Counted from the first letter of the stretch, positions 3,085 through 64,000 are shown. The stretch: 64,000 bases of DNA from Bacteroidales bacterium (GCA_050287785.1 JBNKCO010000060.1:108482-172481), one strand, 5' to 3'. Program-made: numbers and translations. The notes: generated by a model from the sequence alone, not told the origin.

Positions 3085-4035
3085 ATGAAAAGCTTTGAAG
3101 AAAATAGAATTTGTCAGTTGTTTAATATTGAATATCCAATAATTCAAGGTGGCATGGTTTGGTGTAGTGGATACAAATTGGCTGCAGCGGTAAGTAATGC
3201 CGGAGGACTTGGATTAATAGGTGCTGGATCTATGACTCCTGAAATACTCGATGAACATATTGTAAAATGTAAACAAGCAACCAATAAGCCATTCGGTGTT
3301 AATTTGCCACTGATTCACAGAAATGCAGCAGGACTTATTGAAGTTATTCTAAAGCATAAAGTAAAAATCCTTTTTACATCTGCAGGTAATCCGGCAAAAT
3401 GGACACAAGTATTGAAAGCTCAGGGTTGTACCGTAGTTCATGTAATAGCGAATACTAAGTTTGCAAAGAAAGCTGTAGAAGCCGGAGTAGATGCTATTGT
3501 TGCCGAAGGTTTCGAAGCAGGAGGCCATAATGGTAGAGAGGAGACAACCACACTGGCTTTACTTCCCATGATTCGTAGGGTATCAGAGGTTCCAATTATA
3601 GCTGCCGGTGGAATTTATGACGGCAGTTCAATGTTAGCTACCTTTGCTCTTGGAGCCGAAGGTGTGCAAATTGGAAGCCGATTTGCAGTATGTGAAGAAT
3701 CATCGGCACACGAAAACTTTAAAAACTACGTTTTAGAATCGGAAGAAGGCTCAACAAGGCTATTAATGAAAAGGCTTATTCCTGTTCGGCTAATGCTTAA
3801 TGAGTTCGCAAATAAAGTTGTTGATGCTGAAGCAAGTGGGGCAACAATTAACGAATTGGCAGAGCTTTTGGGCAGTGGAAGATGTAAACGAGGAGTATTT
3901 GAAGGAGATTTGTTAGAGGGTGAGCTTGAGATAGGTCAGGTGGCAGCCTTATTAATTAAGAAAGAATCAGCTGAAGAAATTGTCCAAAATATTATACATG
4001 GGTATCAAAAAGAGCTTATTAGGCTTACAAGTTAA
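3085..4035 (+). CDS. Nitronate monooxygenase / FabK-like FMN enoyl-ACP reductase family protein
   Basis: 316 aa. The N-terminal YPIIQGGMVWCSGYKLAAAVSNAGGLGLIGAGS and AEGFEAGGHNG motifs are typical of the NMO/2-nitropropane dioxygenase (FabK) TIM-barrel family. Confidence 0.85.
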   Translation: MKSFEENRICQLFNIEYPIIQGGMVWCSGYKLAAAVSNAGGLGLIGAGSMTPEILDEHIVKCKQATNKPFGVNLPLIHRNAAGLIEVILKHKVKILFTSAGNPAKWTQVLKAQGCTVVHVIANTKFAKKAVEAGVDAIVAEGFEAGGHNGREETTTLALLPMIRRVSEVPIIAAGGIYDGSSMLATFALGAEGVQIGSRFAVCEESSAHENFKNYVLESEEGSTRLLMKRLIPVRLMLNEFANKVVDAEASGATINELAELLGSGRCKRGVFEGDLLEGELEIGQVAALLIKKESAEEIVQNIIHGYQKELIRLTS

Positions 4036-5560
4036 AAACGCACACTTATTCTGCATTTTAGTATTATTGTTTTTACTAAATCTCACCTTGAAAAGTCAGG
4101 TAACAATAGATATACCTAAAATCAGGACTTTGCAATTAGATTCAACCATGGTCAAAATTGTATGGGAAAAATCAAAGCACCCTGGTGTTTTAGGCTACGA
4201 AATTAATGCTATAGGTTTTACTGGAAATAATCCAGAGCCCACTTTGGTTAGAGTTGATAGTGTTGGATCAGCACAAAGCTCATATGTGTCTGATGCAAAT
4301 ACTCTACCAGAATATGTCACTTCTCCATATAAAGAACCTTTAGCATTCGCAGTTTTGGCTGAGGATAATAAGGGCAATGAAAGCAAACTTGATGGACTAC
4401 CATGGGATAGCACTATTTTTCTTCAGGCTAGCTTTGATACTTGTCTGGCTAAGGTAAACCTGAATTGGACCCCTTACGATTTTAACATGTGGACTTACGG
4501 TACAAAGCATTATGTTATAATGATTCAGGAAAATAACGGACCTTTTACTGTTTATGATAGAGTGAATCAATCAATAACAAATTACCAGATAAATGATTTG
4601 TTGGCAAATAATATTTATAATTTTTATATTGGAGCAGTGGCTGACACAACCCGACCCGATACTTCAACTTCAAATATAGTTGAGATAAATACAGGAATGG
4701 CCAGGTTACCAGAATATATTCATGCTGATTACGCAACATATTCAGGCGGAAATGCCAAAGTTTCATTTTCAATTGATCCCATGAGCGAAATCAACACTTT
4801 TGAATTGTTACGGAGCACTTCCTTTACAGGTCAATATTCTGAAATAATGCAGCTTCAATCTCAAGGCAATAAAGTTGTACATTCAGATGCAATTAATTAT
4901 AATGATGGTCCCTATTTTTATAAGCTTGATGCAATTAATTTTTGCGATGAAAATATAAGAACCTCAGAAAATACTGCATCAACCATACTGCTTGAAGTAG
5001 GAGGGGAACCAATGGCTCCAGAGCTTAATTGGAGTGAGTATCAAAATTGGATTAATGGAGTTTCTTATTACCAGATTGACAGGAGGGTTGGAGATGAGGA
5101 ATATTCTATGCTTACTACATTAAATGAGACACTATTTACTGATAATACAATTGAGCAAAGAGTTGAGACAGGAATGGCTGCAAGAGTTTGTTATAAGGTA
5201 AGTGCTTTTGAGAATAATAATCCATATGGAACCAATGCCGTTAGTGATGCAAATGAAGTATGTATTGAGCTTCCTGTTAATATGAGATTTGAATACGACG
5301 CCTTTATGCCAGGGCATCCTGCAGGTAATAATACATTTGGACCAGCAATGGATTTTCTTCCAGATGAAATTGATTTTAGCATTGTGGACAGGAGCGGACA
5401 AGTGGTTTTTAATTCTACCGATCCTGATAATTTATTTTGGGACGGAACTTATAATGGAAACTATGTAACACAGGGTGCATACATGTATGTTGTTAAATAT
5501 CGGGTTGGACACGGCAAAAGAAAAACCTTGCGAGGTGGATTAGTAGTTGCTTACCCATAA
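3998..5560 (+). CDS. Secreted repeat protein with T9SS type B (gliding-motility CHU_C) C-terminal sorting domain
   Basis: The C-terminus FMPGHPAGNNTFGP...IVDRSGQVVFNS...WDGTYNG..VTQGAYMYVVKY...RGGLVVAYP matches the type B T9SS CTD pattern. The track start at 3980 is TTG. The ATG at 3998 gives the signal-like peptide MGIKKSLLGLQVKNAHLFCILVLLFLLN. The exact start is uncertain because it overlaps the upstream gene. Confidence 0.75.
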   Translation: MGIKKSLLGLQVKNAHLFCILVLLFLLNLTLKSQVTIDIPKIRTLQLDSTMVKIVWEKSKHPGVLGYEINAIGFTGNNPEPTLVRVDSVGSAQSSYVSDANTLPEYVTSPYKEPLAFAVLAEDNKGNESKLDGLPWDSTIFLQASFDTCLAKVNLNWTPYDFNMWTYGTKHYVIMIQENNGPFTVYDRVNQSITNYQINDLLANNIYNFYIGAVADTTRPDTSTSNIVEINTGMARLPEYIHADYATYSGGNAKVSFSIDPMSEINTFELLRSTSFTGQYSEIMQLQSQGNKVVHSDAINYNDGPYFYKLDAINFCDENIRTSENTASTILLEVGGEPMAPELNWSEYQNWINGVSYYQIDRRVGDEEYSMLTTLNETLFTDNTIEQRVETGMAARVCYKVSAFENNNPYGTNAVSDANEVCIELPVNMRFEYDAFMPGHPAGNNTFGPAMDFLPDEIDFSIVDRSGQVVFNSTDPDNLFWDGTYNGNYVTQGAYMYVVKYRVGHGKRKTLRGGLVVAYP

Positions 5561-9948: not shown

Positions 9949-9980
9949 GTTTGGTTCTTCTTGTCATTGCGAATGAAATG

Positions 9981-10055: not shown

Positions 10056-10556
10056 TTACTGAACTTTTTTCTTTAAAGACATTATCCCTTCCTTCATCGA
10101 TCTAAAGGCAAATTCCTCAGGATTTAATTCATCAAGCGTCTTCCAAACAAATCCAGCAATTTCTGATTCTTCAATTCTGAAATTTATAGTATTAATTCTT
10201 GCGGTGTAAAATATATCACATGTATTATATTCTATGCCTTTGAATTGATATATATTTGGTGCCGTACATAAATACTCAAGTGCTGTAATATTAATGTCTA
10301 GCTCTTCCTTAATCTCTCTTCTAAGCGCATCTTCCGCAGATTCCATAGGATCCACAAAACCACCTGGAAAATCAAGCATACCTTTACTTGGTTCTCGGTT
10401 TCTGATAACAGCCAGATATTTTCCTTTATATTCCAATATGCCAGCTACAGCTGCTGCTGTATTCTGGTAGAATTCCCAGTGACATTTTGGGCAAAAATAT
10501 TTTTTAACGCTATCAAACTGCAGTTCATCTGATTTGCATTTAGGACAACAATCCAT
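10056..10556 (-). CDS. NUDIX hydrolase with N-terminal zinc-ribbon
   Basis: 166 aa with a CPKC...CPKC ribbon and the Nudix box GGFVDPMESAEDALRREIKEELD. Confidence 0.9.
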   Translation of the reverse strand: MDCCPKCKSDELQFDSVKKYFCPKCHWEFYQNTAAAVAGILEYKGKYLAVIRNREPSKGMLDFPGGFVDPMESAEDALRREIKEELDINITALEYLCTAPNIYQFKGIEYNTCDIFYTARINTINFRIEESEIAGFVWKTLDELNPEEFAFRSMKEGIMSLKKKVQ

Positions 10557-10566
10557 TTATAATCAA

Positions 10567-11844
10567 TTAGTTTAGCTGTTTTGAAGGTTTTTCTAATCCA
10601 TGAGTTTTAGGACCGGTTTCAGTTATACGCAGCCAAACAGAAAAGATTAGTGCAAGAATGCCCAAAATGCTCAAAGTCCATATCATAGGGATATATCCCT
10701 GCGGATGCCCTGAAGAAGCATTAAAAATATCATTCAATTTACCAATACCTTCGTTCATGCCTCCTACTCCTATTTGTTGGATTAGTGTCATTAATGCATA
10801 AGCACTCCCCAATCTTTTAACATCAACAACATATGCAACAGATGGCCACATTATAGCTGGTATAAGGGAAAAAGCAATTCCCAACATAGAAATGGGGACA
10901 ACCAGGGAAATATTAGTATATGCTATTATAAAGAAAACGGGCATAAGTAATAGTGATCCAAGTACCATAAATGAGGACCTTTTACCTACAAAATCAACAA
11001 GTAATCCGATTAATGGAGTAGCAAACATTGATGCCATAGGTAAAAAGCTTAATAAATCCCCTGCCTCACTTCTTTCTATGCCATTAAATTGTTGAAAAAA
11101 CTTAATAGCAAACGAACGGAAAGGGAATACAGCTGAATAGAAAGTAACACATAACAGAACAATCAGCCAGAACGACCTCGAATAGCTTAATAAACCTTTG
11201 AGACTGAGTTTGTCTGTTTCTTCAGCTTTGGTAAGCTTAAATTTTTTATTTGCATATCCTTCAATGAAAAAGTAGGTTATCCCGGCTAATACACATAATA
11301 GTCCAATTATTGCAGCAATCTGGAGAGGTGGTTTCCAAGATGTGTAAAATTCCTCGAAAAAATTGGGCGATTTATCAGCAAACCAAGAACCTCCCCGGGC
11401 AATAAACAGATTTATCCCCATTGCAAAGCCCAAAGCTTTACCTTTAAACCATTTAGCAATTGAAACAGTTATTGCCACAATTAACAATTCAGCTCCAAGT
11501 CCTAATATAGTTCTTCCAATGAGCATGATAACCAGGTTGCTGTCCAGCATAGTTAATATGCCTGCCAGAGAGCAAATTGCACCAAATATCAGAACAGATA
11601 TCCGTGTGCCAAATTTATCAATAAAAACTCCGCCGAATATTAATGCAGCAATGGATGCCCAACTATAAAATGAATATAAACGACCTATACTATTATCAGA
11701 AAAACCTAGCTCAGAAGATAAAATATCTGCTATTGGTGCAATGCTATCATAAAGGTAATAGTTACCAAACATTGCCAAACTAGAAACTATTAATGCTGCC
11801 CACCTAAGCCAAGCTGGAATTTTAATATCTTTCATTGTAATCAT
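10567..11844 (-). CDS. MFS transporter
   Basis: 425 aa with ~12 predicted hydrophobic helices arranged as two 6-TM halves. The substrate is not inferable. Confidence 0.8.
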   Translation of the reverse strand: MITMKDIKIPAWLRWAALIVSSLAMFGNYYLYDSIAPIADILSSELGFSDNSIGRLYSFYSWASIAALIFGGVFIDKFGTRISVLIFGAICSLAGILTMLDSNLVIMLIGRTILGLGAELLIVAITVSIAKWFKGKALGFAMGINLFIARGGSWFADKSPNFFEEFYTSWKPPLQIAAIIGLLCVLAGITYFFIEGYANKKFKLTKAEETDKLSLKGLLSYSRSFWLIVLLCVTFYSAVFPFRSFAIKFFQQFNGIERSEAGDLLSFLPMASMFATPLIGLLVDFVGKRSSFMVLGSLLLMPVFFIIAYTNISLVVPISMLGIAFSLIPAIMWPSVAYVVDVKRLGSAYALMTLIQQIGVGGMNEGIGKLNDIFNASSGHPQGYIPMIWTLSILGILALIFSVWLRITETGPKTHGLEKPSKQLN

Positions 11845-17250: not shown

Positions 17251-19155
17251 ATGAGAACTTTAGTAAACCTTATGGAGGAAAGTGCAAAGACTTTCCAGAA
17301 TAATCCCTATGTATATCAAAAAGAAAAAGGAGTTTATAAACCATACACTTATGTTGAAGTGCGTAAAAGAGTTCACAGATTTGGTGCAGGCTTAATGCAT
17401 TTAGGATTAAATGATGGTGATAGAGTTTCTTTATTAGCTGAAGGTAGACTTGATTGGATAGCGGCTGAATTGGGAGTGTTGTACAATAAAGCGATAAATG
17501 TACCTCTTTCTATTAAGCTTTCTGCCGAAGAAGTATTATTCAGGTTAAATCACAGTGGTTCAAAGTTTGTCGTTACAACAAGTCGTCAAATTGAAAAAGT
17601 ATTAGAGGTAAAAGCAGAGCTTAAAACAATAGAAAAAATAATACTACTTGATAACCCTCAAAAGGAAGATGAATTTATTATTGGAATAGATGAATTATTG
17701 GCCAGGGGAGATGAGCAATTAAAGAAATCCAGAAGCGATTTTGAGAAAAGATATACTAGTGTTGGAGAAGATGATTATGCAAATATTTGTTACACATCGG
17801 GTACAACTGCTGATCCCAAAGGCATTATTTTATCTCATAGAAATTATACGGCAAATGTAGAACAGTCTAATTCTGTTATGCCGATACCAGAATGGTATTC
17901 TACCTTGTTAATACTTCCATGGGATCATGCTTTTGCTCATACATGCGGAATCTATACTTTAATGGCTAATGGAGCAAGTCTGTCTTGTGTCGATTTAGGT
18001 AAAACACCCATGGATACTTTAAAAAATATTCCTATAAATATTAAAGAGTCTAAGCCAGTTTTCCTTCTTAGCGTTCCTGCGCTTGCCAAAAATTTCAGAA
18101 AGAACATTGAAAATGGTATCCGGGCAAAAGGTCCAAAAGTTGAGAAACTTTTTAACCGAGCCTTAGCAACTGCATACGATTATAATGGGATAGGATGGGA
18201 TAAAGGAAAAGGATTAAAGTTTTTGTTGTGGCCATTAGTAAAACTATACGATAAGCTCCTTTTTAGTAAAATTAGGGAAGGTTTTGGTGGAAAACTTGAA
18301 TTCTTTGTTGGTGGTGGCGCTTTATTAGACATAGAACTTCAACGATTCTTTTATGCAATTGGAATTCCTATGTATCAAGGTTATGGACTTAGTGAGGCAG
18401 CCCCGGTTATTTCAAGCAATTCTCAAAAAAAGGTTAAAATGGGATCTTCAGGTGCAATTGTAGATTTCTTAGAAGTGAAAATTTGCGATGATGAAGGTCT
18501 TGAACTACCAATTGGAGAAAAGGGCGAAATTGTAGTTAAGGGTGAGAACGTAATGAAAGGTTACTGGGCAAATGAAGAGGCAACCAAAGAAACTATTAAA
18601 AACGGCTGGCTTTATACTGGCGATTTGGGGTATGTAGATAAAGATAACTTCCTTTATGTTCTTGGACGATTTAAAAGTCTTTTAATTGCTGATGATGGAG
18701 AGAAATTTAGCCCCGAAGGGATTGAGGAAGCAATGACAGACCAGTCTCCACTGATTGAGCAGTGTATGCTTCATAATAATCAAATGCCATATACTATTTG
18801 TCTGCTTGTACCTAATGCCGAAGCTGTAAAAAGACAAGCTAAAGATAAAAATATCAATATTGAAACCGAAGAAGGACTTCGGAAAATGCTGGAAATTATT
18901 GGAAAGGAAGTTAATGAATATCGTACCGGCGGAAAGTATGACGAGATGTTTCCTCAGCGCTGGCTTCCATCATCAATAGCAGTTTTAAGCGAAGGATTTA
19001 CAGAGGATAACAACCTCTTAAATAGCACTCTTAAAATGGTTCGGCCTAAAATTAACGAACGATATGCCGATTTGTTAGACTATCTCTATACACCTGATGC
19101 AAAAGACATAACAAATAAGCAAAACATAGAAAGCCTTAAAAGCATACTTAATTAA
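17251..19155 (+). CDS. Long-chain fatty acid--CoA ligase (AMP-binding family)
   Basis: It has the AMP-binding motif YTSGTTADPKG plus GYGLSE and TGDLGY. The track start at 17182 is GTG. The ATG at 17251 (MRTLVNLMEE) is more plausible. Confidence 0.9.
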   Translation: MRTLVNLMEESAKTFQNNPYVYQKEKGVYKPYTYVEVRKRVHRFGAGLMHLGLNDGDRVSLLAEGRLDWIAAELGVLYNKAINVPLSIKLSAEEVLFRLNHSGSKFVVTTSRQIEKVLEVKAELKTIEKIILLDNPQKEDEFIIGIDELLARGDEQLKKSRSDFEKRYTSVGEDDYANICYTSGTTADPKGIILSHRNYTANVEQSNSVMPIPEWYSTLLILPWDHAFAHTCGIYTLMANGASLSCVDLGKTPMDTLKNIPINIKESKPVFLLSVPALAKNFRKNIENGIRAKGPKVEKLFNRALATAYDYNGIGWDKGKGLKFLLWPLVKLYDKLLFSKIREGFGGKLEFFVGGGALLDIELQRFFYAIGIPMYQGYGLSEAAPVISSNSQKKVKMGSSGAIVDFLEVKICDDEGLELPIGEKGEIVVKGENVMKGYWANEEATKETIKNGWLYTGDLGYVDKDNFLYVLGRFKSLLIADDGEKFSPEGIEEAMTDQSPLIEQCMLHNNQMPYTICLLVPNAEAVKRQAKDKNINIETEEGLRKMLEIIGKEVNEYRTGGKYDEMFPQRWLPSSIAVLSEGFTEDNNLLNSTLKMVRPKINERYADLLDYLYTPDAKDITNKQNIESLKSILN

Positions 19156-19233: not shown

Positions 19234-19352
19234 GAATTATAAAGAATGAGGGGAGAGATTAGGCTCACAGAACCTCTGGCAACCTGTCAGACCATTGCGC
19301 AAGGTGCCAAAACCTAATCCCATATTGGTAAATGCATGGGAGATTATAAAAG
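19234..19352 (+). promoter_or_regulatory. SAM-I (S-box) riboswitch aptamer in the metH leader
   Basis: It shows P1 UUAUAA...UUAUAA, the kink-turn-like GAGGGGAGAGA, GGCAACC, AAGGUGCCAAAACCUAA, a P4 hairpin CCCAU..AUGGG and a closing GAGAUUAUAA. This follows the SAM-I consensus order. No B12 box (GCCACUG) is present. Confidence 0.78.
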
Positions 19353-19414: not shown

Positions 19415-22400
19415 ATGAATAGAAAAGAGATAATACAAGAGCTACTACAAAAAAAAGTTCTCCTGCTAGATGGAGCAATGGGTAGCCTTATTCAGGATTA
19501 TAAATTAGCTGAAGAAGATTATCGTGGAAACCGTTTTTTGGATTCAAAGATTGATTTGAAAGGAAACAATGATTTGCTTTCTATTACTCAACCCCAAATA
19601 ATAGAAGAAATTCATGAACGATATCTTGAAGCAGGTTCAGATTTAATAGAGACGAATACTTTTAATGCAAATCGGGTTTCACAGGCAGATTATGCTTTGG
19701 AAGAATTATGTTACGAAATGAATTTTGAATCAGCAAAAATAGCTCGTAAAGCCGCTGATAAATATACCAAACTTACACCTGACAAGCCTAGGTTTGTTGT
19801 AGGTTCGATCGGGCCAACAAACAAAACAGCATCAATGTCACCAGATGTTAATGACCCAGGTTTTCGTGCAATACATTTCGAAGAACTAGTTGAGGCTTAT
19901 GCTGAAGAAGTGAGAGGATTAATGGATGGTGGTGCCGATGTTTTAATGGTAGAAACAATATTTGATACCCTAAATGCGAAGGCTGCATTATTTGCAATAA
20001 AAAAGGTATATAAGGAACAAAATTCTGAATTGCCCGTGATGGTTTCCGGAACTATTACAGACGCTAGTGGAAGAACTTTGTCAGGCCAAACAGTTGAGGC
20101 ATTTTTAAATTCATTGTCACATGTAAATCTTTTAAGCATAGGGCTAAATTGTGCTTTAGGAGCAAAAGAAATGCTTCCACATATTGAAGAACTTAGTGCT
20201 AAAGCACCATTTCATATTAGTGCCCATCCAAATGCCGGATTACCTAATCAGTTTGGTGGTTACGATGAATCTCCGGAACATATGGCAGCTCAATTAGAAG
20301 AGTATTTAGCCGAAGGAAGTGTTAACATTATTGGCGGTTGCTGCGGAACTACTCCAGAGCATATTGCAGCTTTTTCTAAAATTATTGAAAAGCATAATAA
20401 TAGAAAACTGCCAGAAATTGAAAAACAAACAAAACTTAGTGGACTAGAACCCCTTACCATTACACGAGAAAGTAACTTCATAAATATCGGTGAGCGAACA
20501 AATGTTTCCGGCTCGAAAAAGTTTGCCCGCTTAATCAGAGAAGAAGAATTCGATAAGGCCCTTTCGGTGGCTCGCGATCAGGTAGAAGGTGGAGCACAGA
20601 TAATCGATATTTGTATGGATGATGCCATGCTGGATGCTGAGGCAAGTATGGTGAAATTCTTGAATTTGGTAATGGCGGAGCCAGAGATTGCCCGCGTACC
20701 AATTATGATTGATTCTTCTAAGTGGTCAGTAATTGAATCTGGATTGAAATATGTACAAGGAAAATGTATTGTAAATTCAATTTCGCTAAAAGAAGGAGAA
20801 GATCAATTTAAAGAACAGGCTCAGAAGATTCTTAGCTACGGTGCGGCAGTAGTTGTAATGGCCTTTGATGAAAAAGGACAAGCCGATAGTTTTGAGCGTA
20901 AGAAGGAAATCTGTAAGCGAGCTTATGATATTCTTACTGAAGAAGTAGGTTTCCCAGCAGAGAATATAATTTTTGATCCAAATATTTTGGCAATTGCTAC
21001 AGGTATTGAGGAACACAATAATTATGGAGTTGATTTTATCAATGCTACTCGTTGGATAAAGGAAAACCTTCCGTATGCCAAGGTAAGTGGAGGAGTAAGT
21101 AATCTCTCATTCTCATTCAGGGGAAATAACACAGTTCGTGAGGCTATGCATTCAGCATTTCTATATCATGCAACGAAAGCGGGCATGGATATGGGTATTG
21201 TAAATCCATCGATGTTGGAAGTTTATGATAATATTCCAAAAGATTTGTTGGAGCTTGTTGAGGATGTTATTCTAAATAAACGTGATGATGCAACTGAACG
21301 TTTAATTGATTTTGCTGAAACTGTTAAGCAAACCGATAAAAAAGAGAAGAAAACCGACGAATGGCGTATGAAACCTGTTAATGAGCGATTAAGCTATGCT
21401 CTTGTAAAAGGTATTGCTGATTTTGTTGAAGCAGATGTTTTAGAAGCCAAAGAAAGTTTCCCAAGAACAATTAATGTTATAGAAGGACCATTAATGGATG
21501 GAATGGGAGTTGTTGGTGATTTATTTGGGGAGGGTAAAATGTTTTTGCCTCAGGTTGTGAAAAGTGCCAGAGTGATGAAGAAAGCTGTAGCAACATTGTT
21601 ACCTTTTATTGAAGAAGAAAATGCTGGAGAAGGAGGAGTGGATGTTAGTATTGGTAAGATTCTTCTGGCAACGGTTAAAGGTGATGTACATGATATTGGT
21701 AAAAATATTGTTGGTGTTGTTCTGGCTTGCAACAATTATGAAATTATTGACCTTGGAGTAATGGTTCCCACAGAAAAAATTATTGAGGTTGCCAAAGAGC
21801 GGAATGTTGATATTATTGGTCTTAGTGGTCTTATTACACCTTCCTTGGAAATTATGAGCGATTTCGCACGGGAAATGGAAAAACAAGGTATTATTAAGCC
21901 CTTAATGATTGGAGGAGCAACAACATCAAAAATTCATACAGCTATTAAAATTATGCCACATACCGGAGCACCTGTAATACATGTAAAAGATGCTTCAAAG
22001 AGTGTTGGTGTAGTAAACAGTTTATTATCTAACGAATTGCGTGATTCGTACATCGAAAAGGTTAAAAGTGAATATACCCAGCTTCGTGATAATTATGCCG
22101 GTTCAAGTTCTAAGGTAAAATACAAATCGCTGGAAGAGGCCAGGCATAATAAGTTTGAAATTGATTGGGAAAACACCAATATTGTGCGTCCTGAGTTTAT
22201 CGGCACAAAAGTTTTTTCTAATTACCCATTATCAGAAATTCGCGAATATATGAATTGGGTTTTCTTCTTTGTTGTATGGCAACTGAGAGGTAAATTTCCT
22301 GAAATTCTTGACGACCCAAAAATTGGAGAGGAAGCACGTAAATTATATGATGATGCTAATCGGATGCTTGATAAAATAGTTGAAGAAAACCTAATTACAG

Positions 22401-23098
22401 CAAATGGGGTTGTTGGCTTTTATCCTGCAAATTCGGTAGGCGATGATATTGAAATTTACAAAGATGAAAGTCGTTCTGAAATTCTAACTGTTTTTAGAAA
22501 TTTAAGAAATCAGGTTGAGAAAGAAGAAGGATTACCTAATTTATGCCTTTCCGACTTTATTGCTCCGAAAGAAAGTGGAAAAATTGATTACCTGGGAGCT
22601 TTTGCAGTAACAACAGGTATAGGAGTAGATAAATTAGTGAAACAATTTGAAGCCGATCACGACGATTATAATAGTATTCTTGTTAAAGCATTGGCTGATA
22701 GACTTGCTGAAGCCTTTACTGAACTTATACATTTGAAGATTAGGAAAGAGCTTTGGGGGTATGCCAAGGAAGAAGATCTTTCATTGAACGATTTGTTGTT
22801 AGAGAACTATCAGGGTATTAGGCCAGCTCATGGATATCCGGCATGTCCTGAGCATTCAGAGAAAGAAACCTTATTTGATTTGCTTAGAGCATCTGATGAC
22901 GCCGGAATTACCTTAACTGAGTCTTTCTCAATGGTACCTGCAGCATCTGTAAGTGGATTGGTATTTTCGCATCCACAATCGAAATATTTTTTTATTGGCA
23001 AAATAGGAAAAGATCAAGTGATTGATTATGCGAGCAGAAAAGGTGTTTCGCCTGAGATTGTTGAAAAATGGCTTGCATCTGAACTAAATTACATGTAG
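19415..23098 (+). CDS. metH: Cobalamin-dependent methionine synthase
   Basis: 1227 aa with all modules: Hcy-binding, pterin-binding, B12-binding ([10 protein letters not shown], the DxHxxG motif) and an AdoMet reactivation domain. Confidence 0.97.
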
Positions 23099-46066: not shown

Positions 46067-46163
46067 AGTAAACGAGGGTTTATTGAGACATTTTAAAGTA
46101 CTGTTTATATACTTAGGTATGTGAAAAAACAGTACTTTTAATACACATATAAACAAGTTAGGT
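46067..46163 (+). repeat. attC-like imperfect palindrome (97 nt)
   Basis: It begins AGTAAAC and ends GTTAGGT, a perfect GTTRRRY. The arms GGGTTTATTGAGACATTTTAAAGTACTGTTT and AAACAGTACTTTTAATACACATATAAACAA are largely complementary. It ends 34 nt before the next ORF. Confidence 0.5.
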
Positions 46164-46197
46164 GTCAGCTAAATGTCCTACAAACAAACAGACGTGA

Positions 46198-46884
46198 ATG
46201 TTAAAAAAAAGGAAAATAAAAGAAGAAAGACTTAACAAATTCGTAGCAAATCTTAATGCTCAGATTGGACAAAATTATAATGTGATAAAAGATATATTCA
46301 ATAATGAATATGGTTATCCAGAGCTTGACCCGATAAGAGATGAAATTTGTAAATGTATAATTTGTGGACTTGCACAAGCAGCAATGACTTTGACAAATCA
46401 CTTACTTGAATCTTCCTTGAAAAAGTGTTTAGCAATGAGATTCTCGATAGAAAACAAAAAAGACACAACTGAATTGACTGATGTTTTTAAAAATGGAATT
46501 GACTTTTATGATGATAAATTTTTAGATGAAACAATAAATCGGGCATGTTCACAAGGACTAATTACAAAAGAACAAAAAAAGACTTTTAAAAAATTTAAAG
46601 ACGATTTTAGAAATCCTTATTTGCATGCATCTACAAATAAAATATTCAAAGATAAAAAAGTAAAAGGTGCTGTTGTTTCAATGACAGAAAGGGAGAAAGA
46701 AAATCCAGAGAAATTTATTAAAAGACTTTTTCAAATTGAGACTAAAGAATTGCCAATTAAAGCAATTCTTCCCGTACACGGAATGGCTCAAGTTGACATT
46801 GCGAGAGAGAATCTTTTACCATATTTCTCAGAAGTAGATAAAACGATTAGAGAAATGCTAAAACAATTAAAACCGAACAGCTAA
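46198..46884 (+). CDS. Hypothetical all-alpha protein with an Rx4H (HEPN-like) motif
   Basis: 228 aa with no signal peptide. It has a single RNPYLH motif (46609-46626) in a predicted helical context. The stop codon lies inside the AGCTAAC box of the downstream palindrome. Confidence 0.7.
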   Translation: MLKKRKIKEERLNKFVANLNAQIGQNYNVIKDIFNNEYGYPELDPIRDEICKCIICGLAQAAMTLTNHLLESSLKKCLAMRFSIENKKDTTELTDVFKNGIDFYDDKFLDETINRACSQGLITKEQKKTFKKFKDDFRNPYLHASTNKIFKDKKVKGAVVSMTEREKENPEKFIKRLFQIETKELPIKAILPVHGMAQVDIARENLLPYFSEVDKTIREMLKQLKPNS

Positions 46885-47010
46885 CACTTTGTAAATTGCA
46901 TTGCGGTGTCGGTGCAGGTTGTCGCTTAGAATTCCCGCATAATTGTTTTCGTCCTGTGGACGGACAATCACCCGAAATTCGCAACGACAATTTACAATTT
47001 ACCGTTGTGT
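46879..47010 (+). repeat. attC-like imperfect palindrome (132 nt)
   Basis: It starts AGCTAAC (overlapping the stop codon) and ends GTTGTGT. The box TGTAAATTG pairs with CAATTTACA, TTGTCG with CGACAA, and GAATT with AATTC. There is a central hairpin CGTCC-TGT-GGACG. Confidence 0.45.
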
Positions 47011-47253
47011 GGCATGCAAATTCGCAACTAACAATAACTTATGGACTTTAAAGACACAAAAAATCATATTGACCATGTAATGAACCTGCAGAACAATCAC
47101 AATTTGCGATGAATGTATTAGAATATTATAAAACTGATAAACAGAATTAACCGATATGTTAATAGAATTAAGAATTCCAATTATTAGTATCTTTAGAAAG
47201 AGATTTTAAAGCATATTAAATTAATAAACCCGATTACAAGCAGATAATTAGAT

Positions 47254-60493: not shown

Positions 60494-60627
60494 AGTTTGA
60501 ATACTATGCATTATTGCGTCAAATAAATTCAACGTTTCCGGTAATTAATTAAGAGAAGTATATGTTAAATATTAAGATGTTAAAGCCTGTGGTTACAAAA
60601 ATTCGTCTTCGAACAAAGTGAGAATAG

Positions 60628-61026
60628 TCTAAGATATCTAAGCTTCTACTTGAAAATATTGAGATTGTTGTTTCACTTATAATAAGATTATTTGAGACTG
60701 GAGCAAATAACGTTGTGATGACAAATCTTCAAAGTGATAAGTTAGAGGAAACTAAACTGGAGGCTATGTAAATCGCACTTGACAAAGCAATGAAAAAGGC
60801 TGAAATAATTGCTTCACATTTAAATTTCTCTATTGGACAGATTATTGAAATTTCTGAATTTAGACCTCAGATTCAGATAATGACGGATAAAGGAGAGTAT
60901 GCTTTCCAATCTAGGAACCTAACTGCATATGGTGTAAATTGACTGTATTATTATGAAGGAGAGGATAGTGGCAATAGAAAAATTAGGGTTGGATATATCG
61001 TAGATATAAATTACGTACTAAAATAA
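60628..61026 (+). pseudogene. Decayed C-terminal fragment of a SIMPL/DUF541-family gene
   Basis: A single reading frame gives ..LFETGANNVVMTNLQSDKLEETKLEAM*IALDKAMKKAEIIASHLNFSIGQIIEISE...AYGVN*LYYYEGEDSGNRKIRVGYIVDINYVLK*. It has in-frame stops at 60625, 60769 and 60940. The N-terminal half of the family is missing. Confidence 0.5.
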
Positions 61027-61035
61027 TGCACGACC

Positions 61036-61165
61036 ACACAACACTAGGTATAAGTAATGCCAGGCTTTTCAGTATTCGAGCCAGTGTTTTTCAAAAATGC
61101 TTATCTTGTAACCTGATAGGTTTGAGCTATGCACGCTGGCACTACTCATACCATTACCGTTAGCA
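61036..61165 (+). repeat. attC-like imperfect palindrome (130 nt)
   Basis: It starts ACACAAC and ends GTTAGCA. The 17-nt arms GGTATAAGTAATGCCAG (61047-61063) and CTGGCACTACTCATACC (61136-61152) are complementary at 15 of 17 positions. It ends 12 nt before the next ATG. Confidence 0.55.
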
Positions 61166-61177
61166 TTACTTAAGCCC

Positions 61178-61897
61178 ATGAAGCAAGAAATAAATAGACT
61201 AGAATTATTTTTAGATTATTCGAATAAAGTCATTAAAGAATTTGAAGGTAAAGGGACTGAAAATGTCTCGCTTGATTATTTAATTGAGAATAGCCTGAGA
61301 AGCTATGATATTCTTTTATCAGTTAGTATTCTCCTAAAAAGCAACCTGGGTTTGTCAGAATTGGAACATCCTCTTGGAATATTATTTAGATCAGGACTGT
61401 ACGACTTTATTTATCTACAATATGTTATGAATAAATCGCTCAAAAATAATATTCTGGATTCTGAATCATTAGATTCTGAAATTAGGGAATATATTAATGG
61501 GCATTTTAATAAAGTAGGAAAAGACTTTGAATTGATTGATTCCCTTAAAGGAAAAGATAGATTCAAGGACTTTAAAAGTAAAGATAGATTTAAGGAATTA
61601 GGGGTGTTAAAAGAAGGTAGAAGTTTTGCTGAGAGCAAAAAACTACCGCACCTAAAACTCGCAATTGACTGTTGGGAATGGTATTCAAAATACGAACATT
61701 ATGGTGTTTTTACGAATCTAATGTATAATGACATCGAAGGAAATAGAATAAGGGTTCAAAGGTCTATTGAATTGCTATCATATAATATTTGCTTCTCATT
61801 ACACTTGTTGCTAGAACTAGGATATGACAAGATTAAACTTGAGGATATTAAGAAGCTTGAAGATATAAGTCTTGACTCTATAAATAACTATTGCTAA
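61178..61897 (+). CDS. Hypothetical all-alpha cytoplasmic protein
   Basis: 239 aa with no signal peptide or TM segment. It has an internal near-repeat KGKDRFKDF / KSKDRFKEL and a conserved-looking WEWYSKYEHYG segment. Confidence 0.6.
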   Translation: MKQEINRLELFLDYSNKVIKEFEGKGTENVSLDYLIENSLRSYDILLSVSILLKSNLGLSELEHPLGILFRSGLYDFIYLQYVMNKSLKNNILDSESLDSEIREYINGHFNKVGKDFELIDSLKGKDRFKDFKSKDRFKELGVLKEGRSFAESKKLPHLKLAIDCWEWYSKYEHYGVFTNLMYNDIEGNRIRVQRSIELLSYNICFSLHLLLELGYDKIKLEDIKKLEDISLDSINNYC

Positions 61898-61985
61898 TAA
61901 TAAATAAAGGGCATGGGCTTTCAGCATAAATTTTGGAGTTTGGTTTTTCAAAGTAGCCCACGGCCCCTTTTTCGGAACGTTGTAG
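61892..61985 (+). repeat. attC-like imperfect palindrome (94 nt)
   Basis: It starts TGCTAAT (overlapping the stop codon) and ends GTTGTAG. The arms are AAAGGGCATGGGCT and AGCCCACGGCCCCTTT. It shares GGCTTT(T)CAGYAT and GTTTTTCAAA with the 61036 element, and AACGTT(GT)AGCACC with the 63780 element. Confidence 0.5.
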
Positions 61986-62144
61986 CACCGAAAATTGGCG
62001 CTAACAAGGGCACTTTATTATAACCTCTCAAAAAAAACCGTACAAATTGTGCTACAAAATGATGAAGTCAAAATAACAAGAATCATTGATATTCAAGAGA
62101 GATTTTATAACAAATTAAACTTAACCTCAAGCAGATATTAGGAT

Positions 62145-62633
62145 ATGGACTTTATAATTAGAATACTGGGATTTTTAGTTTTTATAGCTGGAATAATTCT
62201 ATTTATACTTGGGATTATTTCAAAACATAAAACATTAAAAATAATTGGAATAATTACATTTATAACTCCTTTGGCTTTAACTGTATTGCTAATTGTTTTT
62301 ACTAATATATTGGGTTTCTTGAAGGTTTCCCCTTCGAAGTCTGATTTTTATGGGAAATATGTGCTTGATGAAAAATCATATGATTATGTTAAGAGTATTG
62401 GTAGTTTGGATACTTTAAGTACAATTGAAATTTACAAAAATGATTCTATTTATATTGAACCTGTTGATTTCTTAAATGTAACAGGACATGGTGTTTTCGA
62501 ATATGAGTCTTGGAACGATAATGGAATGAATTTTCACATTAAAAATGGATATCATATAGTTCATTTGGATAGAGATATTAAAAACTGGAGATTAGAATAT
62601 TCTGGATTCTATTATAAAAAGATTAATGATTAA
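62145..62633 (+). CDS. Hypothetical membrane-anchored protein (two N-terminal TM helices + ~100-aa soluble domain)
   Basis: 162 aa with hydrophobic segments at residues 5-25 and 33-55. I recognise no motif. Confidence 0.55.
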   Translation: MDFIIRILGFLVFIAGIILFILGIISKHKTLKIIGIITFITPLALTVLLIVFTNILGFLKVSPSKSDFYGKYVLDEKSYDYVKSIGSLDTLSTIEIYKNDSIYIEPVDFLNVTGHGVFEYESWNDNGMNFHIKNGYHIVHLDRDIKNWRLEYSGFYYKKIND

Positions 62634-62842
62634 TAACATGCTACAACAAAATGTAAAAAACATTACCTTCGGTGAACTCGCAAGCTCGATTGTGCAGAGA
62701 TGCTAAAACTGAGAAGTAATAACACTTAATAAACATATAGCGGTCGGATAAGTTGGGAGCTTTGAAATGTCAACCAACCCATATTCTCAACATTACCATG
62801 CATTTAAAAGAGATATTGTACAAGTAAAAAACATTGGATAGA

Positions 62843-63295
62843 ATGAATATTCAAATAAGACCGATTGGATTCGTTGTAAATGAAAGGATAGAAAAATCTG
62901 ATACTAATTGGAGTTCTATAGAATCAAGAATTGAATTGACTTCTGAGTTTGATTCTGATTCTCTTGAAGGAATAGAACTATTCTCCCACCTTGAGATATT
63001 ATTTTATTTTGATAAATCGGAGAAAGAATTTAAAGGGTCTGAACATCCAAGAGGAAATACAAAATATCCAAAAGTTGGAATATTTGCCCAAAGGAAAAAA
63101 GACAGACCAAACCATATAGGTGCAACAATTGTAAACTTGATTAAAAAAGAAAGAAATGCCTTGATAGTTTCAAATTTAGATGCTATTCATGGAACCCCAA
63201 TACTTGATATTAAACCAGTATTCAATGAATATCTACCTAAAGGAGAATTGTCACAGCCAAGTTGGACAAATGAATTAATGAAAAATTATTGGTAA
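62843..63295 (+). CDS. TsaA/TrmO (YaeB)-like domain protein, short form
   Basis: LEGIELFSHLEILFYF, GIFAQRKKDRPNHIGATIVNL and LDAIHGTPILDIKP align with the conserved blocks of E. coli TrmO/YaeB. The track start at 62834 is TTG; I use the ATG at 62843. Confidence 0.8.
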   Translation: MNIQIRPIGFVVNERIEKSDTNWSSIESRIELTSEFDSDSLEGIELFSHLEILFYFDKSEKEFKGSEHPRGNTKYPKVGIFAQRKKDRPNHIGATIVNLIKKERNALIVSNLDAIHGTPILDIKPVFNEYLPKGELSQPSWTNELMKNYW

Positions 63296-63296
63296 A

Positions 63297-63782
63297 ATGA
63301 TAGAATTTAGCATAAAACAGGGACAAATAGAGGATTTGGATTTAGTGAAACCTCTATGGGAAAAACTAAATGATTTACATGAAAGTTTGTCTCCTAATTT
63401 TAAGGAAAGATTCCAAAGAATGAATTGGGACAAAAGAAAAAGCAATCTGATAAGTAAGGCAGGAAAATTTTTATTAGAATATGTTATTGAAAACAAAAAC
63501 AATAAAATTGTAGCATACTGCATTTCAACAATTGAGAAGGAAAATGAAAAAGTGGGAGAAATCGATTCAATATTCGTTGAGAAAGAACTAAGAAAATCAG
63601 GAATTGGAAAGCAACTTATGGATAATGCTATAAATTGGTTGATTTCGCAAAATACCGAGACACAAAGGCTATTAGTTGGAGTTGGTAATGAAAAGGTGAT
63701 TGATTATTATCATCAATTTGATTTTCATCCTCTTCACATTGTATTACAGAGAAAGGATACTGATAAAAACGCAAGGAAATAA
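63297..63782 (+). CDS. GNAT-family N-acetyltransferase
   Basis: 161 aa with the acetyl-CoA motif VEKELRKSGIGKQLMDNAINW. It starts 1 nt after the upstream stop codon. Confidence 0.85.
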   Translation: MIEFSIKQGQIEDLDLVKPLWEKLNDLHESLSPNFKERFQRMNWDKRKSNLISKAGKFLLEYVIENKNNKIVAYCISTIEKENEKVGEIDSIFVEKELRKSGIGKQLMDNAINWLISQNTETQRLLVGVGNEKVIDYYHQFDFHPLHIVLQRKDTDKNARK

Positions 63783-63901
63783 TAATATATATAATAGGCG
63801 TGATAGCAGTAAATTCAATGGTTATAGCCGCTTCAAAATTGTTGCAGTTTGATAGAGATGAAGCCCGCAATCGTCTACTTTGCGCATACTTAACGTTAGC
63901 A
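63780..63901 (+). repeat. attC-like imperfect palindrome (~120 nt)
   Basis: It starts at the stop codon (TAATAAT) and ends AACGTTAGCA. The arm TAGCCGCTTCA pairs with TGAAGCCCGCAAT, and TAGGCGTGATAGCAG pairs with CGTCTACTTTGCGCATA. It ends 31 nt before the next ATG. Confidence 0.45.
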
Positions 63902-63932
63902 CCAATATTACAAAACACAAAAAGTAAGAGTT

Positions 63933-64000
63933 ATGAAATCAAATATTTTAAAAAGTGGAATCTTTGTGTTACTCTTTAACATGAGTATGATTTGCTTTGC
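63933..64000 (+). CDS. Start of a further small ORF with a signal-peptide-like N-terminus (runs off the right edge)
   Basis: My translation is MKSNILKSGIFVLLFNMSMICF... Only 22 codons are visible. Confidence 0.35.
   Translation, partial: MKSNILKSGIFVLLFNMSMICF

Follow-up and report, generated by a model that had tools for sequence, protein, structure and literature searches.

A probable integron-like cassette array with non-canonical attC-like sites in a low-GC Bacteroidota chromosome

Results

Gene order at the locus

The window, i.e. the whole stretch of 64,000 nucleotides (nt) analysed here (Bacteroidales bacterium, GCA_050287785.1 JBNKCO010000060.1:108482-172481), ends in a row of co-oriented, unrelated open reading frames (ORFs) which runs from 60.6 kb to the right edge, and each of these ORFs is followed by an element resembling the attC site of integron cassettes. 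The elements begin at the stop codon with a box ending in ..AAC (R'') and finish with (A/C)C|GTT.. (R') ahead of the next ORF. The units and elements of the array and of the lone unit described below lie on the + strand.

The first unit is the remnant of a SIMPL (DUF541) gene (60628-61026) abutting a conserved gene of 409 amino acids (aa). Its match to Pfam SIMPL PF04402 (E=2e-8) is limited to positions 93-161 of the 205 in the profile, and its frame is interrupted by stops; the remnant is therefore a 5'-truncated pseudogene, the decayed first cassette. Element E1 (61034-61167) follows, with the R'' box CCACACAAC, a 17-bp L stem and the end ATTACC|GTTAGCATT. Cassette 2 carries an orphan ORF of 239 aa (61178-61897), bounded by GTTAGCATT at 61159 and ATTGCTAAT at 61890. 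Within this ORF a 27-nt tandem duplication (61545-61596) encodes a repeated ..KDRFK(D/E).. peptide. Element E2 (61890-61987) has the R'' box TGCTAAT, within which the stop codon lies; its stem, AAAGGGCATGGGC/GCCCACGGCCCCTTT, is bulged, and it ends in GGAAC|GTTGTAGCA. The ORF of cassette 3 (162 aa, 62145-62633) has a hydrophobic N-terminal half, gave no match in Pfam or PADLOC, and is bounded by GTTGTAGCA (61979) and TGCTACAAC (62639). It is followed by a long element of 166 nt (62639-62804), either attC-like or ORF-less, in which an R'' box precedes a small hairpin and a conserved core, the 3' end being the degenerate CATTACC|ATGCATT. Cassette 4 contains two genes, a TrmO/TsaA-like ORF (62834-63295; Pfam TrmO_N, E=5e-26) and a GNAT acetyltransferase ORF (63297-63782; Pfam Acetyltransf_1, E=1.6e-14), and ends in the degenerate attC-like element E4 (63777-63903), the 3' half of which reads CATACTTAAC|GTTAGCACC. 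Of cassette 5 only the start of a 427-aa alpha/beta-hydrolase ORF (63933-64000) lies inside the window. No defence match was obtained with PADLOC among the cassette proteins of the window.

The hydrolase ORF runs on in the Logan contig L001, in which a position equals the window position minus 62653. Beyond the window L001 contains, in order, the 427-aa hydrolase gene, a 56-aa ORF, a 320-aa alpha/beta hydrolase gene, a second long element (3747-3944), ORFs of 75 and 151 aa, an attC-like element (4739-4873) and lastly a GH2 mannosidase gene. The array thus continues for about 3.5 kb past the window, which brings its whole length to about 7 kb and the number of units to about 6. Between the two hydrolase genes (L001 2555-2782, window-equivalent 65208-65435) an R''-like box, AAGCTTAAC, overlaps the stop of the 427-aa gene, and no recognisable GTT end is present; this segment may be a decayed site which fuses two cassettes.

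Structure of the attC-like elements

The elements of the array were compared with those of L001 and of L009, L014, L026 and L029, which are other Bacteroidota contigs carrying homologues of the 239-aa ORF. On the coding strand, AAC at the end of R'' is followed by GTT at the start of R' in 46877-47012 (the site of a lone cassette, see below), in 61034-61167, in L001 4739-4873 and also in L009, L014, L026 and L029. Two boundaries, GTTAGGT at 46157 and GTTAGGC in L009 and L014, fit the R-box consensus RYYYAAC/GTTRRRY.

The 3' cores ACCGTTAGCA, AACGTTGTAGCACC and AACGTTAGCACC were confirmed to be present. The motif A[AC]CGTT[AG][GT] was counted 8 times over the two strands of the 64 kb; 4 of the copies lie on the + strand within the final 3.5 kb (binomial P ~4e-5). 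Three of these four end array elements, and a fifth motif ends the lone cassette. The remaining one of the four, AACGTTGTG at 60709, was tried as a cassette boundary and rejected, as it lies inside the SIMPL reading frame (GANNVV). E1 and E2 (counted from 61034 and 61890) share collinear blocks, GTTTTTCAAA at offsets 51/52 and GGCTTT(T)CAG at offsets 28/25, and the arms of E1 are homologous to those of L001 4739-4873. The 3' half of E4 is almost identical to the dfrA17 attC at its 3' end. The elements fall into at least two or three site classes, of about 97-136 nt and about 166-198 nt. No Rfam family matched any of them.

The 17-bp arm pair of E1 consists of 15 Watson-Crick pairs and two A:C positions, the latter being G:T on the bottom strand, and with a fold z-score of -1.6 E1 was the only element standing out as an isolated hairpin. 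Five well-structured elements (46877, 61034, L014 9177, L014 10024 and L026 13134) folded 3.3-6.7 kcal/mol better as the bottom strand, because the A:C mismatches of the top strand become G:T; for E1 the values were -17.1 and -13.8 kcal/mol for the bottom and top strand, respectively. The preference was marginal for E2 and was not shown by E4 or the long elements. Integron integrases recombine the bottom strand of their sites.

The initial annotation, made from the window alone, had given the unit order exactly as found here, together with the decay of the SIMPL gene, the related 3' cores ahead of the next ORF and the internal blocks common to the elements then placed at 61036 and 61892. Its statement that each palindrome starts at or within 10 nt of the preceding stop codon also held. 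The 5' half of E4 has no AAC box.

Scanners proved to be of little use for discrimination. A hand-written scanner for AAC, spacer, stem and GTT and a constrained-folding scanner both returned dozens of background matches and were too permissive, although the elements at 46877 and 61034 rank within about the top three in the window. Copies of related elements in different samples were identical, hence there was no covariation to read, and the spacer lengths among the Bacteroidota elements were too variable for MAFFT to register the arms.

A lone cassette-like unit upstream of the array

A further unit was found 14 kb upstream of the array, at 46157-47012. It opens with the boundary GTTAGGTGT (46157-46165), which fits GTTRRRY, and contains an orphan ORF of 228 aa (46198-46884) with no Pfam or PADLOC match. 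The attC-like element at its end (46877-47012, 136 nt) has the R'' box ACAGCTAAC overlapping the stop codon, stems of 10 and 5 bp and the end TTTACC|GTTGTGTGG. It is the lowest-energy fold bounded by AAC...CGTT in the entire window (bottom strand -23.7, top strand -20.3 kcal/mol). The unit has the appearance of one inserted cassette, of the type found in the array.

The sequence GTTGTGTGG (47004-47012), directly 3' of the lone site, is the exact reverse complement (9/9) of the R'' box of E1, CCACACAAC (61034-61042), at a distance of 14 kb. The match could reflect an old adjacency split by rearrangement, an exchange from site to site, or chance; the SIMPL gene which precedes E1 is 5'-truncated.

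Complementarity of the cassette ends

In integrons the crossover falls between G and TT of R'. A cassette consequently starts with TTxxxx, and its own attC starts with the complementary xxxxAAC. In the window, the 5' boundary GTTGTAGCA (61979) and the R'' box TGCTACAAC (62639) of the 162-aa unit corresponded at 9/9 positions, GTTAGGTGT (46157) and ACAGCTAAC (46877) of the lone 228-aa unit at 8/9, and GTTAGCATT (61159) and ATTGCTAAT (61890) of the 239-aa unit at 7/9 after reverse-complementing. The unit with the 75- and 151-aa ORFs in L001 gave 8/9 (ATTAGCTAC at 3936, GTAGCTAAC at 4739), the unit of the 239-aa homologue in L009 10/10 (GTTAGCATTA at 9976, TAATGCTAAC at 10715), and that of the Schlafen gene in L014 a match with a 2-nt indel (GTTAGGCAA at 10097, TTGCCTAA(AA)C at 11299).

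Over 8 cassettes, failures included, the true pairing resulted in 32 matches compared with a mean of 20.8 for permuted pairings (P=0.01), and 5 of the 8 matched at 5-6 of the 6 variable positions. Sites of the circular form, rebuilt from the two ends of one and the same cassette, close with an R stem of 6-11 bp. In these rebuilt sites the R stem is nearly continuous with the L stem, and bulges of 1-4 nt are found mostly on the R'-L' side.

The long elements

The two long elements, 62639-62804 and L001 3747-3944, are 73% identical copies lying 3.7 kb apart. At the start of each stands a mini-hairpin, AATGT-AAAAA-ACATT; next comes ACC, which E1 also has at its 3' end, and then a conserved 40-nt core. 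The hairpin of this core in the window copy is intact on the bottom strand only. The initial annotation had considered the spacer 62634-62842 as the less convincing one of the array, and it turned out to be better than that: besides having the second copy, it begins with TGCTACAAC, the exact reverse complement (9/9) of the GTTGTAGCA which ends the preceding element. Likewise, the 3' end of the L001 copy, ATTAGCTAC, matches the next R'' box, GTAGCTAAC, at 8/9. At the left end of the window copy and the right end of the L001 copy, the boxes thus act like attC ends, and each long element could represent an attC that has collapsed and become fused to a cassette lacking an ORF.

Other copies were absent from the window, and exact-pattern scans with two conserved blocks of the long element gave zero matches in genome and metagenome collections, both of which exclude the window's own genome. 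Two Logan contigs of one sample (the end of L002 and the start of L001) stop and overlap by 20 nt inside the long element (62654-62673). Such breaks suggest further copies elsewhere in that genome.

The unit in other Bacteroidota contigs

The 239-aa ORF has 17 homologues with 40-56% identity. In other Bacteroidota contigs homologues (43-56% identity) were found with the same kind of ends and with different neighbours. In L014 the homologue belongs to an 18-kb co-oriented array with GmrSD_N/HEPN, Schlafen-AlbA_2, AAA_14-DUF4143 and PIN_12 genes, several elements of which end in ACC|GTTAATTGA, ACC|GTTAGGC, AAC|GTTGTGCG and AAC|GTTAGCA. In L009 and L026 it stands amid other small orphan ORFs in array-like contexts, and in L029/L030 it lies alone on the + strand between core genes of the - strand. 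The homologues in L006 and L017 are without such a site. No relative of the family was found in viral contigs.

The 5' boundary GTTAGCATTA is identical in the window and L009, and the DNA upstream of it differs, which indicates that the gene and its site behave as a unit with changing neighbours. The otherwise unrelated arrays of L014 (13860-14899) and L026 (14395-15570) share a long conserved non-coding stretch (..cccacattggaaaaatcacttgggacccacatgg..gaaccct.agcttgtcgaagggaagttttt..), possibly another mobile or structured element inside the arrays.

Searches for an integrase and for classical attC sites

The Pfam scan of the window ORFs of at least 180 aa revealed no integrase, transposase or other recombinase (a 202-aa DUF2807 gene is apart from these, its family being listed separately). 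A phmmer search with IntI1 against every stop-to-stop frame of at least 150 aa in the window and the fetched Bacteroidota loci returned nothing at E<=10, so the absence of an integrase from the window, already noted in the initial annotation, was confirmed. In a 5.8-billion-protein set, class-1-like integrases dominated the matches to IntI1, and nothing pointed towards Bacteroidota. A complete integron, with intI, attI and a Pc promoter upstream of the first cassette, was not found; the first cassette is 5'-truncated.

For the sites, a covariance model (R1) was built from 13 attC sites of class-1 integrons on plasmids, with the real R-spacer-L arms and a randomised variable loop. The loop was replaced by random sequence because MAFFT split the L' box in the N-masked training alignment. 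R1 scored 32-59 bits on the training sites and 33 and 37 bits, on the right strand, on the unseen attCs of dfrA12 and gcuF, respectively, the background being below about 9 bits. No match was obtained on any element in the window, L001, L014, L009, L026 or L029, even within 3.6 kb at E<=10. Since R1 is narrower than the 96-site model of IntegronFinder, this result means that the sites are not classical, rather than that they are not attC. R1 misses the elements because the integrated sites are hybrids of dissimilar R boxes, the spacers differ and the extrahelical L'' base is missing.

Chromosomal setting

The window is low-GC (34%) Bacteroidota chromosomal DNA. It contains the housekeeping genes purA, metH, relA/spoT and recG and hallmarks of the phylum in the form of type IX secretion domains (Por_Secre_tail/CHU_C) and of CarboxypepD_reg domains in TonB-type receptors. 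The sole Rfam match of the window is an S-adenosylmethionine (SAM) riboswitch (19234-19352; RF00162, 51.7 bits), upstream of the B12-dependent methionine synthase gene metH (19415-23098). No tRNA genes were found in the window. A single other copy of the organism, identical to the window, was detected in the Logan assembly of SRR36185847.

The array is preceded by the conserved 409-aa gene and a TonB-type receptor gene. The nearest named relatives of the flanking gene are metagenome-assembled genomes designated 'Bacteroidota bacterium' and 'Bacteroidales bacterium', the closest being only about 80% identical in this gene. Two relatives, in which the flanking gene is 80% identical, have a wholly different set of genes downstream of it and none of the attC-like elements. 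The GC content is 0.29-0.33 across the array and 0.35-0.39 in the flanks. The array thus occupies a variable spot of the chromosome and has an acquired character.

Two further structures were seen at this spot. Directly after the stop of the 409-aa gene, a hairpin GTT[T]GAAT...ATTCAAC (60496-60536), with GTT immediately after it, shares its 3+1+4 geometry with the L box of classical attC sites, but is without R boxes. In the relative L005, the variable region 3' of the orthologous gene contains repeated units of about 170 nt (..taacagcccaaagaaaagccctgtagcac..gccccctttagggggtttgggggcaaaaa..) at 11215-11780 and 17370-18100, which belong to a repeat family different from the array elements.

Discussion

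Integrons are the best-understood system of gene capture and shuffling, and surveys place them almost entirely in Proteobacteria and hardly in Bacteroidota. A cassette array is the best explanation of the anatomy described here, and the view that the locus works like an integron cassette array is supported. It is rather probable that the right end of the window is the left part of an array of about 7 kb, with about 6 integron-type cassettes, divergent attC-like sites and the classical mechanism, and with no adjacent integrase, in the manner of a cluster of attC sites lacking integron-integrases (CALIN). A CALIN is defined by two or more neighbouring attC sites without an intI in the vicinity; here the spacing and the lack of intI agree with this, and the sites are attC-like and negative with R1. 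The sites are a non-canonical variant, in which the R stem runs almost straight into the L stem, in contrast to the classical bubble of 5 x 5-6 nt and the extrahelical L'' base.

Each cassette comprises one or two promoterless-looking ORFs and then an attC-like site. Read on the coding strand, the site starts with the AAC box (R''), placed at the stop codon or across it, continues as an imperfect palindrome and finishes with (A/C)C|GTT.. (R'). By analogy with integrons, the site would fold as single-stranded bottom-strand DNA and would be cut by a tyrosine recombinase between G and TT. A cassette, which would start with TTxxxx and have the complementary xxxxAA(C) in the site on its 3' side, could then be excised as a circle and re-inserted. 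The array was presumably made by an integron integrase which is encoded elsewhere in the genome or has been lost, as the truncated first cassette would allow, and it may still be mobile.

A number of results weigh against an integron array of this kind. No IntI-like protein was found in about 290 kb of the window and related loci, R1 recognised none of the elements, and complete integrons in Bacteroidetes have been reported only for Salinibacter ruber (PMC9024848). In the complementarity test 3 of the 8 cassettes failed or passed weakly, and the two ends of a long element do not pair mutually. The arms, which the initial annotation had described as complementary, are so in E1; the stem of E2 (AAAGGG../..CCCTTT) is real but bulged (61885-61990, z=+0.1), and E4 has no end-to-end arm pairing (63775-63905, z=+1.2), only its 3' half (CTTAACGTTAGCA) being attC-like. 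E4 and both long elements are poor end-to-end palindromes with unremarkable fold z-scores. The terminal triplets deviate in E2 (AAT for AAC), in the long elements (ATG or ATT for GTT) and in E4 (no AAC box), and the R' boxes GTTAGCA, GTTGTAG, GTTGTGT, GTTAATT and GTTGGCA depart from GTTRRRY. The spacers are 3-7 nt long between R'' and L'' and 6-9 nt between L' and R', the latter ending in (A/T)ACC or AAC, and a single-base L'' bulge is missing. The unpaired segments of about 5 x 5-6 nt and the extrahelical R''/L'' bases of classical sites were not found, compared with spacers of 5 and 5-6 nt and a 3+1+4 L'' in the 13 class-1 sites.

The cassette reading of the initial annotation is thus supported by the anatomy, the complementarity of the ends, the bottom-strand folding and the recurrence of the unit; membership of the canonical attC family finds no support in the result with R1. 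Three observations had been named there as contrary to that reading: no hits with an attC covariance model, no intI in the genome or its relatives, and an identical gene order across distant relatives. With R1 as a surrogate model no match was found, and no intI was seen in the window or the related loci; a fixed gene order is contradicted by the relatives.

The cassettes might be integron-like and yet be served by a divergent or unrelated Bacteroidota-specific enzyme instead of a classical IntI, which would explain both the non-canonical geometry of the sites and the absence of IntI. The complete failure of the classical attC model despite the cassette-like architecture speaks for such an enzyme, as do the R-L spacing, which departs from the classical one in every well-folded element examined, the lack of IntI near any of four independent arrays, and the near absence of Bacteroidota integrons from the literature (PMC9024848; bioRxiv 10.1101/2024.07.02.601686). 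However, no candidate enzyme was seen, which makes this an argument from absence; the contigs are short, arrays can be far from intI, and CALINs lacking IntI are frequent among ordinary integrons, too. IntI, moreover, uses exactly such conserved AAC/GTT triplets, this orientation and this preference for bottom-strand folding; a non-IntI recombinase is considered quite unlikely. Explanations without cassettes are unlikely even when taken together. One of them, in itself improbable, is an ordinary variable islet of horizontally acquired small genes, in which the palindromes are terminators or chance inverted repeats and the likeness to AAC/GTT is coincidental. The non-significant z-scores of most elements, the many background matches of the simple AAC-stem-GTT scan across the window, the negative covariance model and the absence of a recombinase would all be expected of such an islet. 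Terminators, however, leave elements of 95-135 nt with 60-nt loops unaccounted for, and the same applies to the concentration of the 3' core motif in 5% of the window (P ~4e-5), to the end-to-end complementarity across each ORF (P=0.01) and to the fact that homologous genes in two unrelated settings have an identical boundary, GTTAGCATTA.

A colonisation of the intergenic spaces of the region by dispersed extragenic palindromic repeats, unrelated to the genes they flank, is highly improbable. These could resemble repetitive extragenic palindromes (REP) and bacterial interspersed mosaic elements (BIME) or miniature inverted-repeat transposable elements (MITE), and the sequence blocks shared by the elements and the break of the Logan assembly inside the long element, with its hint of further genomic copies, would agree with them. 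Against this, the elements are confined within the 64 kb to the array and the lone cassette, keep one orientation to the upstream ORF and start at its stop, and the exact-pattern scans with two conserved blocks of the long element found no copy in the genome or metagenome collections. The many intergenic copies in both orientations which define REP/BIME-type repeats were not observed, the core motif having 8 occurrences in the 64 kb. Terminal inverted repeats accompanied by target duplications were not seen in the window, nor was a RAYT- or IS200-type gene, and dispersed repeats do not predict that the 3' flank of one element is complementary to the 5' box of the next.

More tentatively, the arrays may represent a lineage-specific integron-like cassette system of environmental Bacteroidota, with the AAC/GTT crossover logic, a different R-L geometry and a recombinase, either a divergent IntI or another enzyme, encoded away from the arrays; the likelihood of this is rather low. 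If true, it would help to explain why the phylum looks almost free of integrons in surveys, as standard attC models would miss its sites. The 2024 preprint describes Bacteroidota as a clade previously found without integrons (10.1101/2024.07.02.601686). If the arrays are genuine and their sites off consensus, the detection models now in use return too few integron-like elements for a phylum of major importance in the environment and the gut, and orphan and defence-type Bacteroidota genes, such as GmrSD/HEPN, Schlafen-AlbA_2, PIN and AAA-DUF4143 of L014, would have an unannotated route of mobility. This would make it possible to build a new model of the sites and to look for the recombinase behind them. 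The family found in several environmental Bacteroidota contigs would, if real, be under-annotated. If a standard tool already calls these sites, the locus is simply one more CALIN in a metagenome-assembled genome.

Among the known systems, REP/BIME and MITE palindromes are similar in being imperfect intergenic palindromes with several related copies per genome, whereas the array elements are longer, always adjoin the 3' end of an ORF in one orientation, occur in cassette-like units only and have complementary end boxes that are specific to the gene. The pdif (XerC/XerD) modules of Acinetobacter plasmids likewise combine small gene modules with short recombination sites and no adjacent dedicated recombinase, but pdif sites are 28-bp XerC-spacer-XerD duplexes of alternating orientation, unlike the 100-nt hairpin sites with AAC/GTT ends, and nothing dif-like was seen here. 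The lone units 46157-47012 and L029/L030 resemble single attC sites lacking integron-integrases (SALIN) and genomic GTT insertions (bioRxiv 10.1101/2022.09.11.507474) in their GTT start and the one attC-like site at their end, although an integrase-driven insertion of the units described here is presumed only. With sedentary chromosomal integrons, such as the Vibrio cholerae superintegron with its VCR (Vibrio cholerae repeat) sites, the array has in common the chromosomal location and the relatedness of the sites within the array, and the related array of L014 carries defence-type genes as reported for their cassettes (bioRxiv 10.1101/2024.07.02.601686); it differs in having only about 6 cassettes and several site classes in place of one uniform repeat, with no intI/attI platform seen.

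The array differs from described CALINs (PMC4889954; Neron et al. 2022, PMC9024848) in that its sites are missed by the classical attC model, that its R-L spacers and several R boxes are off consensus, and that integrons have hardly been reported from complete genomes of its host phylum, Bacteroidota. It resembles them in the tandem, co-oriented, unrelated and mostly orphan ORFs, in the palindromic sites with AAC...GTT ends, in the complementary cassette ends and in the lack of an integrase within reach, and its decayed, truncated first cassette fits the remnant of a larger integron.

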